From the IMG/VR virus record IMGVR_UViG_2529293215_000005: a stretch of 5,182 bases of DNA, one strand, 5' to 3'. Every line of letters begins with the position of its first letter. Positions within the stretch are counted from its first letter, which is position 1. Positions 3,001-5,182 of this stretch are shown in pieces. Position numbers: made by a program. The stretch comes from a virus. Lineage: Duplodnaviria; Heunggongvirae; Uroviricota; Caudoviricetes.

Positions 3001-5182
3001 GTCGACTCTCGACTACGTGGCTGAAAAGCCAGATCACCCAACCACATAAGCTGTGGGATGCAATGCCGAAGCAACCGTCTCAGGAGGAGCTTCGAGATTG
3101 CATCGCCAAAGTTTATTCGGGAGGAATCTATGTCCAGAAAAACAGAATTTAAAGGCACCGCAGCTTCTCGCCGTAGAGCTCGTCGCGCAAACCTGCAAAG
3201 TCAGGAGGCGATTAGCTCCGACAAACTACACAGGCCAACCCCATCACGAGTGGTCTTACAATGCAAACGCAAACCAGCAATGAGAGCAGAAGTAATAACA
3301 CTGACAACGTTGACCAGAAAATATGAAGGCTCAACTTGTCTTCCAAATGTAGCTCTTTACGCGGCAGGCTACCGTAAATCCAAACAACTGACAGCAAGAT
3401 GACTTGTGTTGGTCGCCAGAAAATGAAATTAGGCAGCAAACCACTTATTTGAGGTGATATATGGAATTTCATGAAAGTGCGATTTGTGATTTTCGCGCTA
3501 ACGCAAATTCAGTAAAACCACAGCCAATTGCAGTTCTTTTTAAAACAATGGGTGCGTGGGCTGTTTTATGCTTCGCCGCTGACGACACTGACGCAAGAAT
3601 GGCAATAGGACAAGAGATGGAGATGGACCCGACAAACGATGAATTCATAATTTATGGCGCTCCATCTAATTACTTACTTGATACCTGCAACATTTACAAC
3701 AAGGCTGCCTGATGGTGGCCTTTATTTTTGGCATAAACAACAGAATAAACACAGCACTGTGTATTCATTCCAACGAGTGAATACACGGAGCAATGTCGCT
3801 CGTAACTAAACAGGAGCCGACTTGTTCTGATTATTGGAAATCTTCTTTGCCCTCCAATGTGAGGGCGATTTTTTATCTGTGAGGATATGAACAGATGTCA
3901 AACATCAAAAAATACATCATTGATTACGACTGGAAAGCATCAATAGAAATTGAAATCGACCATGACGTAATGACAGAGGAAAAACTTCACCAGATTAATA
4001 ATTTCTGGTCAGACTCTGAATACCGACTCAATAAACACGGCTCTTTATTAAATGCTGTATTAATCATGCTGGCGCAACATGCTCTGCTTATAGCAATTTC
4101 AAGCGACTTAAATGCATATGGTGTTGTGTGTGAGTTCGACTGGAATGATGGAAATGGTCAGGAAGGATGGCCTCCAATGGATGGTAGCGAAGGAATAAGA
4201 ATTACCGATATCGATACATCAGGAATATTTGATTCAGATGATATGACTATCAAAGCCGCCTGAGCGCGGCGTTACCGCATACCAATAACGCTTCACTCGA
4301 GGCGTTTTTCGTTATGTATAAATAAGGAGCACACCATGCAATATGCCATTGCAGGGTGGCCTGTTGCTGGCTGCCCTTCCGAATCTTTACTTGAACGAAT
4401 CACCCGTAAATTACGTGACGGATGGAAACGCCTTATCGACATACTTAATCAGCCAGGAGTCCCAAAAAATGGATCAAACACTTATGGCTATCCAGACTAA
4501 ATTCACTATCGCCACTTTTATTGGCGATGAAAAGATGTTTCGTGAGGCCGTCGACGCTTATAAAAAATGGATATTAATACTGAAACTGAGATCAAGCAAA
4601 AGCATTCACTAACCCCCTTTCCTGTTTTCCTAATCAGCCCGGCATTTCGCGGGCGATATTTTCACAGCTATTTCAGGAGTTCAGCCATGAACGCTTATTA
4701 CATTCAGGATCGTCTTGAGGCTCAGAGCTGGACGCGTCACTACCAGCAGATCGCCCGTGAAGAGAAAGAGGCAGAACTGGCAGACGACATGGGAAAAGGT
4801 CTGCCCCAGCACCTGTTTGAATCACTCTGCATCGATCATTTGCAACGCCACGGGGCCAGCAAAAAAGCCATTACCCGTGCGTTTGATGACGATGTTGAGT
4901 TTCAGGAGCGCATGGCAGAACACATCCGGTACATGGTTGAAACCATTGCTCACCACCAGGTTGATATTGATTCAGAGGTATAAAGCGGATGAGTACAGCA
5001 CTCGCAACGCTGGCAGGGAAGCTGGCTGAACGTGTCGGCATGGATTCTGTCGACCCACAGGAACTGATCACCACTCTTCGCCAGACGGCATTTAAAGGTG
5101 ATGCCAGCGATGCGCAGTTCATCGCATTGTTGATCGTCGCCAACCAGTACGGCCTTAATCCGTGGACGAAAGAAATTTACGC

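Follow-up and report, generated by a model that had tools for sequence, protein, structure and literature searches.

An 83-codon cargo gene at the ral position of the early-left operon in Shiga-toxin-converting lambdoid phages

What is the role of the small gene that follows the antiterminator gene N in the early-left operon of Shiga-toxin-converting lambdoid phages? The stretch of DNA analysed here (the window, 5,182 nucleotides, to which all coordinates refer unless stated otherwise) is a 5.2-kb piece comprising the immunity and early-left region of one such prophage, and its positions 80–5182 are 99.8% identical to VT2-Sakai. A preliminary description, based on the sequence alone, had singled out an 83-amino-acid ORF downstream of N (here ORF83) as a candidate anti-defence or host-takeover gene. 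We ask, in turn, whether this ORF is a gene, what its surroundings say about its expression, which relatives it has, and which of the functions that might be assigned to it fits the available evidence best.

The gene and its operon

Transcription of the early-left operon is predicted to start from a pL-type promoter (TTGACC-17-TACTAT; 2912–2940, plus strand), which was found by promoter scan and coincides with a site annotated as 'putative major leftward promoter' in VT2-Sakai (L001 3510–3538; offset 597–598 nt). The same offset places nutL, the N-utilisation site, at 2987–3027 (plus strand), as transferred from the VT2-Sakai annotation 'putative N-utilization leftward' (L001 3584–3624). N itself (3130–3402, plus strand; 90 aa) matches PF25694 (N_peptide, E 3.4e-32) and bears this name in the VT2-Sakai annotation. 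ORF83 occupies 3461–3712 of the plus strand, from an ATG at 3461 to a TGA at 3710–3712, and starts 58 nt past the N stop codon; both its extent and its place directly downstream of N were as first described. The next gene, ea10 (DUF2528; 3895–4263, plus strand; PF10800, E 6.7e-47), lies outside the cassette defined below and is followed on the same strand by cIII with its Rfam thermoregulator, kil and gam. Of the immunity genes, cI lies at 677/725–1378 on the plus strand and cro on the minus strand. Homology to lambda extends from 3696 to 5099 (98.4% identity) and includes an intact cIII thermoregulator RNA (RF01804; 4323–4381, 88.5 bits, E 2.4e-21). We also considered a known RNA in or near ORF83, and rejected it: Rfam matches only this thermoregulator.

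Two further features of the window deserve mention. The position of lambda rexAB, between cI and pL, is taken by two genes (1880–2401 and 2575–2697), namely H0093 (173 aa, PHROG 2602) and H0092 (40 aa, PHROG 21154), neither of which has a Pfam, NCBIfam or PADLOC match; they are candidates for lysogen-expressed exclusion or defence genes, and mEp234 and HK106 have a HicAB-like pair in their stead. At the left end, bases 1–82 are not VT2-Sakai sequence; they terminate in CCCGGGGCGGTTCA, which we take to be an inverted repeat of the IS629/IS3 type, and match the border of an insertion of ~1.3 kb in phage phi330 (L002 5057–5138). Since the insertion point, relative to VT2-Sakai, lies inside cII, this gene is disrupted in the present prophage, and a 69-aa minus-strand ORF at 42–251 is the N-terminus of cII fused to IS sequence.

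Is ORF83 a functional gene? Its length alone is little evidence, because ORFs of 30 aa or more number 64 in the window, among them minus-strand ORFs of 86 and 97 aa that are not genes. Chance ORFs of similar length, together with frameshifted or IS-interrupted alleles and the fact that no phenotype was reported in the screen discussed below, might suggest a chance ORF, or else a decaying remnant that hitch-hikes on the boundaries of its slot. Comparison with four divergent homologues from Salmonella, Citrobacter, Klebsiella aerogenes and Enterobacter cloacae (70–84% protein identity), however, gave dN/dS values of 0.08–0.24 at saturated dS (Nei-Gojobori). Among full-length members, down to 70% identity, 43 of the 83 positions are invariant; every other reading frame contains stop codons (2–9 each); and the Shine-Dalgarno (SD) sequence and a hairpin at the stop codon are retained in all nine ORF83 loci that were inspected individually. 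The selection analysis effectively refutes the non-gene reading, which we find scarcely credible, and by its pattern of conservation ORF83 is a real gene, conserved as an early gene in lambda-like phages, Shiga-toxin phages among them. Damaged alleles are found in other E. coli genomes (P0008, P0016, P0019 and P0023): in one, an N-terminus derived from the same IS end as above (MIWQPEFTDKTLSRKPGAVH...) has been joined at about codon 17, and the other three show frameshifts or truncations. The gene thus decays in some resident prophages. Two antisense ORFs on the minus strand overlap N and ORF83 (3212–3472, 86 aa, a hypothetical protein in the phi330 record; 3469–3648, 59 aa) and look like over-annotation, because the selection pattern supports the plus-strand frame only.

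The product is identical to H0090 of VT2-Sakai, gp34 of mEp234, HK106_042 and orf60 of Silas et al., and its phage entries (H0090, gp34 and HK106_042) are annotated as 'hypothetical' in every record and genome listed. It is a protein of 83 aa and 9.2 kDa, acidic (pI 4.24) and lacking a transmembrane segment (TMHMM, Silas et al. Supplementary File 3). Its cysteines are scattered (C9, C37 and C76), with only C37 and C76 being invariant. Two AlphaFold runs agree on an alpha-beta-beta-alpha-beta-alpha order, albeit at low confidence (pLDDT 54 and 59). Acidity invites comparison with DNA mimics of the Ocr/ArdA type. These have dense surface acid and inhibit type I R-M. ORF83 has a charge of -7.4 and 12 D/E among its 83 residues (manual count), its homologues in other genera reach only -3 to -4, its model is too poor for judging the surface, and it was no hit in the EcoKI test discussed below.

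Anatomy of the slot

Where does ORF83 begin and end as a unit of exchange? The left boundary of its slot (3337–3460, plus strand), defined by alignment, consists of the 3' end of N, a 58-nt linker and the SD sequence GAGGTGA (3451–3457), whose GAGG core is separated from the ATG by a 6-nt spacer and which is as strong as had been claimed. When the window was aligned with mEp234, HK97 and 933W, the sequences proved near-invariant up to the ATG and diverged from the first codon onward. Homology of mEp234 and HK106 to the window begins at 3337, and the near-identical 3' portion of N at this junction comprises the last ~65 nt of the gene. The boundary is common to phages with ORF83 and to HK97 and 933W, which carry an unrelated hypothetical protein of 156 aa (gp45 and ST933Wp19, respectively) behind the same ATG, N 3' end, linker and SD. 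Like ORF83, gp45 has no Pfam match; it has twice the length and no stop-overlapping hairpin, and returns to the common sequence only further downstream, at ~3754. Read in another frame, the linker (3403–3460) is the C-terminal coding end of a lambda-type/N21-type N (...TCVGRQKMKLGSKPLI*), and in phages with either type the N ORF stops 8 nt before the cassette ATG.

The right junction falls within the last five codons of ORF83, with 98%-identical lambda DNA starting at 3696. The ORF83 stop codon coincides exactly with that of lambda ral, both proteins end in NKAA, and a hairpin overlaps the stop codon, its 5' arm and loop being made up of the two alanine codons and the stop itself. This element (AAGGCTGCC-TGAT-GGTGGCCTT, then a T-tract; 3701–3731, plus strand), picked up by terminator scan, marks the right boundary of the slot. 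The hairpin proper (3701–3722) has a stem of nine pairs, five of them G-C, a loop of four and the tail TATTTTTGG; being G+C-rich and followed by a T-run, it is a predicted intrinsic terminator. It is one of three such sites in the window (1.1 expected), and a second one lies at 3847–3868, in agreement with the original statement that the ORF is followed by a terminator. Its predicted stability is -13.9 kcal/mol in the window and ranges from -10.5 to -16.5 kcal/mol in other ORF83 loci, where the stem is retained via compensating GC/GU changes and, in E. cloacae, in a shifted register. The hairpin occurs in two sequence variants, one common to ral and the other to orf184, an accessory gene of phage mEp213 (mEp213_045) whose product ends in DKAA; the latter variant is also used by the E. 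cloacae homologue of ORF83.

At the end of ea10 (4252–4275) we noticed a similar arrangement, ...IKAA* with AAAGCCGCCTGA and then a short GC hairpin, which resembles the KAA-stop-hairpin boundary of ral and ORF83. The motif has two matches where 0.13 would be expected, and may be a recurrent gene-end linker within the early-left operon.

Between this first terminator and ea10, the common sequence folds further. A 14-bp hairpin with the loop CAAC (3757–3788, plus strand; RNA fold and alignments) lies in the stretch separating the two terminators; its sequence does not vary among lambda, HK97, 933W, mEp213 and SfI, Rfam has no match for it, and the RNA fold of 3690–3900 has a z of -5.56. The second intrinsic terminator (GCCCTC-CAATGT-GAGGGC plus T-run; 3847–3875, plus strand; terminator scan, dG -12.9) lies just upstream of ea10 and is annotated as rho-independent terminator in mEp234, HK106 and HK97. 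We take it to be lambda tL2a (~33,930).

Together, the alignments make ORF83 a precise single-gene cassette in a hypervariable slot between N and the early-left terminators, with SD and terminator being, on the same grounds, properties of a socket into which unrelated ORFs are plugged. Both count as slot features because they are common to unrelated cargo genes; they therefore point to early, efficient expression and are uninformative on function. We consider this nucleotide-level anatomy the main new result of the present analysis. As to the timing of expression, the scans found no terminator-like site between N and ORF83 and no promoter-like site upstream of ORF83 except pL, and the stop hairpin is the first intrinsic-terminator-like site after pL. 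Since no terminator intervenes and the strong stop hairpin has been kept, N and ORF83 would form an N-independent immediate-early transcript of ~0.8 kb, and the stop hairpin would be the first barrier that N must override.

At 95–100% identity the cassette is present in 80 IMG/VR contigs. What precedes it is of at least five kinds (lambda-type N [PF11438], the N type of the window, N21-like N, another arginine-rich N, and P22-type N plus a 75-aa ORF) and the gene that follows is of at least 16, which amounts to ~40 neighbour combinations in the 80 loci. In other genera (Salmonella, Citrobacter, Klebsiella and Enterobacter), a divergent homologue stands first or second behind N; in a P22-like phage of Salmonella, it comes after N and sieB. 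In some phages, tandem N-like antiterminator genes surround the slot: a Citrobacter-type contig (L009) has the order N_peptide, ORF83 homologue, Phage_N_antitermin gene, and mEp213 (L007) has two annotated N genes.

Might ORF83, then, serve N itself, as an early-development helper that protects N from Lon, modulates Rho or Nus factors, or tunes the decision between lysis and lysogeny? It would be in the right place: with every N family (PF25694, PF11438, P22 gp24-type, N21-like and others), it is the first or second gene behind N and lies ahead of the first terminator. Yet N evidently functions without ORF83, since of ~326 phage records with the downstream flank only 57 carry ORF83; unrelated genes (ral, gp45 and orf184) sit at the same address, and the cassette does not co-vary with N type. 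Because of these unrelated occupants, the adjacency of ORF83 and N is more simply explained by recombination at the conserved boundaries of the slot, and we regard a helper function as improbable.

Relatives, Ral and a published screen

To which family does ORF83 belong? The preliminary description recognised none, and this holds for Pfam (no match at E <= 1), NCBIfam (nothing found), the PADLOC-DB defence profiles (0 families at E <= 1) and PDB sequences (chance matches only, E at least 0.3). It does not hold for PHROG 2471, of which ORF83 is a full-length member (residues 1–83 aligned to profile positions 1–83 of 83, E 1.4e-61). This is ORF83's own family; it offers no differences to discuss and no functional annotation, its entry reading 'unknown function'. 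The profile and structure searches that had been proposed thus led to PHROG 2471 and to no functional family, and fold searches with the low-confidence models returned generic matches only. No sequence or confident structural link was found from ORF83 to any known anti-defence protein.

The family is small: a set of 5.8 billion proteins contains 19 clusters of it, every named one coming from Enterobacteriaceae, and an exhaustive profile search of 1.84 billion representatives added one extra cluster, roughly 60% identical. Long repeat proteins from the profile search (P0021 and P0022) were dismissed as repeat-summing artefacts upon reading their sequences. While present in only two of 185,579 species-representative genomes, ORF83 occurs in 403 of 5,426 complete E. 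coli genomes (~7%), compared with 875 for ral, and its carriers include the Stx2 and Stx1 prophages of E. coli O157:H7 (VT2-Sakai type). It is not gene 17 of P22, as PF17420 (GP17) is a separate downstream gene in the Citrobacter locus L008. Literature searches under the locus and PHROG names of ORF83 found nothing, and its sequence is absent from the available supplements of two recent anti-defence catalogues, a machine-learning preprint and EVADES. An 'orf83' in EVADES is a bare name in a list, with no sequence match possible, and was treated as a coincidental name.

The closest point of reference is Ral. The preliminary description took ral for the first small gene after N in lambda, which is approximately right, the annotated order being sieB (on the opposite strand), orf28 and then ral. 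Ral (PF11058) and ORF83 are both small single-gene cargo of the early-left operon, located between N and ea10/cIII, and they share their address to the nucleotide: stop codon, NKAA end, stop-overlapping hairpin and downstream DNA, the 3' flank being 98% shared. In lambda, by contrast, sieB and orf28 separate N from ral, and the hairpin after ral is degenerate (-4.3 versus -13.9 kcal/mol for ORF83). As proteins, the two have nothing in common but four terminal residues: BLASTP gave no alignment at E <= 100, Ral is slightly basic (manual count) whereas ORF83 is acidic, and the four-cysteine cluster in the N-terminal third of lambda Ral (C11, C17, C20 and C26) is missing from ORF83.

The gene has been screened experimentally before. 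Silas et al. catalogued ~190 accessory regions, among which the 'Ral' locus ranks second and several are labelled 'RalSupEx', and synthesised 200 accessory genes. One of them, orf60 (UDP0060), encodes a protein identical to ORF83 (AFM76313.1 of mEp234); we cross-checked the UDP numbering using ocr (UDP0001), arn (0002), cor (0086), ral (0087) and orf184 (0184). Their pooled screen covered 196 accessory genes in 45 phage-host combinations, with eight phages and 20 hosts. The six clones listed as failed or mutated do not include orf60, nor do the listed growth dropouts, and it is missing from the genes for which this pooled assay was reported to yield a counter-defence or conditional-lethal phenotype. 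For unmodified lambda on MG1655 (EcoKI), ardA, ral and ocr were the sole logged hits, each in 3/3 replicates. Ral, in other words, relieved EcoKI restriction and orf60 was not logged as a hit in the same pooled assay.

Could ORF83 nonetheless be a Ral analogue, a non-homologous replacement that relieves type I restriction or enhances modification via HsdM/HsdS? It replaces ral position for position, including stop codon and hairpin; no gene of the Ral family (PF11058) is recorded beside its homologue in loci L008–L013, and none is annotated beside ORF83 in four phage records; and phi330, a carrier of ORF83, is the only one of eight EHEC phages without a DefenseFinder anti-R-M match, that is, without a recognised anti-R-M function. 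The MG1655 result speaks against it, as orf60 was not listed as a lost clone, and so do the lack of a PF11058 match, of a BLASTP alignment and of the cysteine cluster, as well as the other cargo of the slot, orf184 and gp45, which are unrelated and not anti-R-M. We hence judge a Ral-like function very improbable. The preliminary description had named the lack of any effect on restriction or defence as counting against the idea of an anti-defence gene; for type I alleviation at least, the pooled data go part of the way in this direction.

The other instructive occupant is orf184, which triggers the gop-beta-cII abortive-infection system (Silas et al.). It sits in the same slot as ORF83 (N, a small ORF, the cargo, terminators, a gp33-like gene, cIII and kil) and both genes have the same KAA-stop-hairpin end, down to the linker variant found in the E. 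cloacae ORF83 homologue. Their sequences, however, are unrelated (hhalign probability 1%), and orf184 is widespread, including in phages of Burkholderia, Pseudomonas and Vibrio, whereas ORF83 is confined to Enterobacteriaceae. Moreover, a phenotype was reported for orf184 and not for orf60 (Silas et al.).

A different line of thought places ORF83 in the competition between mobile elements, as a factor for superinfection exclusion or one that interferes with satellites or with other prophages. In both lambda and P22, the corresponding region includes sieB, and the 'RalSupEx' labels point the same way. The exclusion hits logged by Silas et al., however, were UDP79, UDP183, cor and imm, and orf60 was not among them. 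In addition, ORF83 resides in the repressed pL operon, with no other promoter-like site upstream, and lacks a transmembrane segment, unlike typical exclusion proteins. Owing to these last two features, such a role fits poorly, and we consider it quite improbable.

What ORF83 may do

Where does this leave the proposal of a counter-defence or host-takeover gene? Its positional basis stood up: ORF83 is a variable gene between conserved flanks, which is what characterises cargo of the 'Ral' accessory region, and candidate status is reasonable because ORF83 shares the ral stop codon and its slot is the published, top-ranked 'Ral' region. The idea was not new, though. ORF83 is already known as a counter-defence candidate, nominated on the same positional logic, and no phenotype has been reported for it; it is no fresh lead. 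At the same time, a pooled negative over eight phages and 20 hosts leaves room for other targets.

The reading that we favour, tentatively and as a real possibility, is that ORF83 is an immediate-early counter-defence or host-takeover protein which binds some protein of the host or of a resident element other than EcoKI. Because pL would drive N and ORF83 as one unit, and the first intrinsic terminator comes only at the ORF83 stop codon, early expression of the gene would not depend on N antitermination, such that ORF83 might be made at once upon infection or induction. Translation would profit from the strong SD that the slot provides. The protein is small, acidic and soluble and shows no catalytic signature. 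It would most likely act by stoichiometric binding, neutralising its host- or element-encoded partner, and its role might lie in counter-defence or host takeover, directed at something that is apparently not the EcoKI type I system. By analogy, the presence of ral (anti-R-M) and orf184 (the gop-beta-cII trigger) in the same slot argues for a counter-defence role. On the other side, a hotspot position provides a prior only, most such cargo genes being without a demonstrated role; no orf60 phenotype was reported, AlphaFold confidence is low, homologues in other genera are much less acidic, and frameshifted or IS-disrupted alleles exist.

A bolder version of this favoured reading, which we think unlikely but worth spelling out, is that ORF83 founds a new family of immediate-early inhibitors whose target is absent from the 20 screened strains. 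Co-transcribed with N before the first terminator, ORF83 would then act ahead of any delayed-early gene. Its target might be a system mainly of EHEC/Enterobacteriaceae lineages or, alternatively, a general factor by which early phage development is held in check, Lon or Rho for example. The arrangement of N, cargo and stop-overlapping terminator would, in this case, represent a dedicated plug-in socket for first-strike counter-defence genes.

For now, ORF83 is an uncharacterised cargo gene of the known 'Ral' accessory region with no computational link to a mechanism, and the practical message is that this candidate has been nominated and screened before with no reported phenotype. Its predicted timing bears on the biology of its carriers: synthesis of ORF83 would coincide with the onset of prophage induction, through which Shiga toxin is released. 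Should the protein disable a host defence or host factor, the range of strains open to these toxin phages would be affected. Beyond the single gene, the window provides a clear nucleotide-level example of a phage socket, in which cargo is swapped between a fixed start codon with its SD and a fixed stop codon with its terminator—a useful template for finding more first-strike accessory genes.
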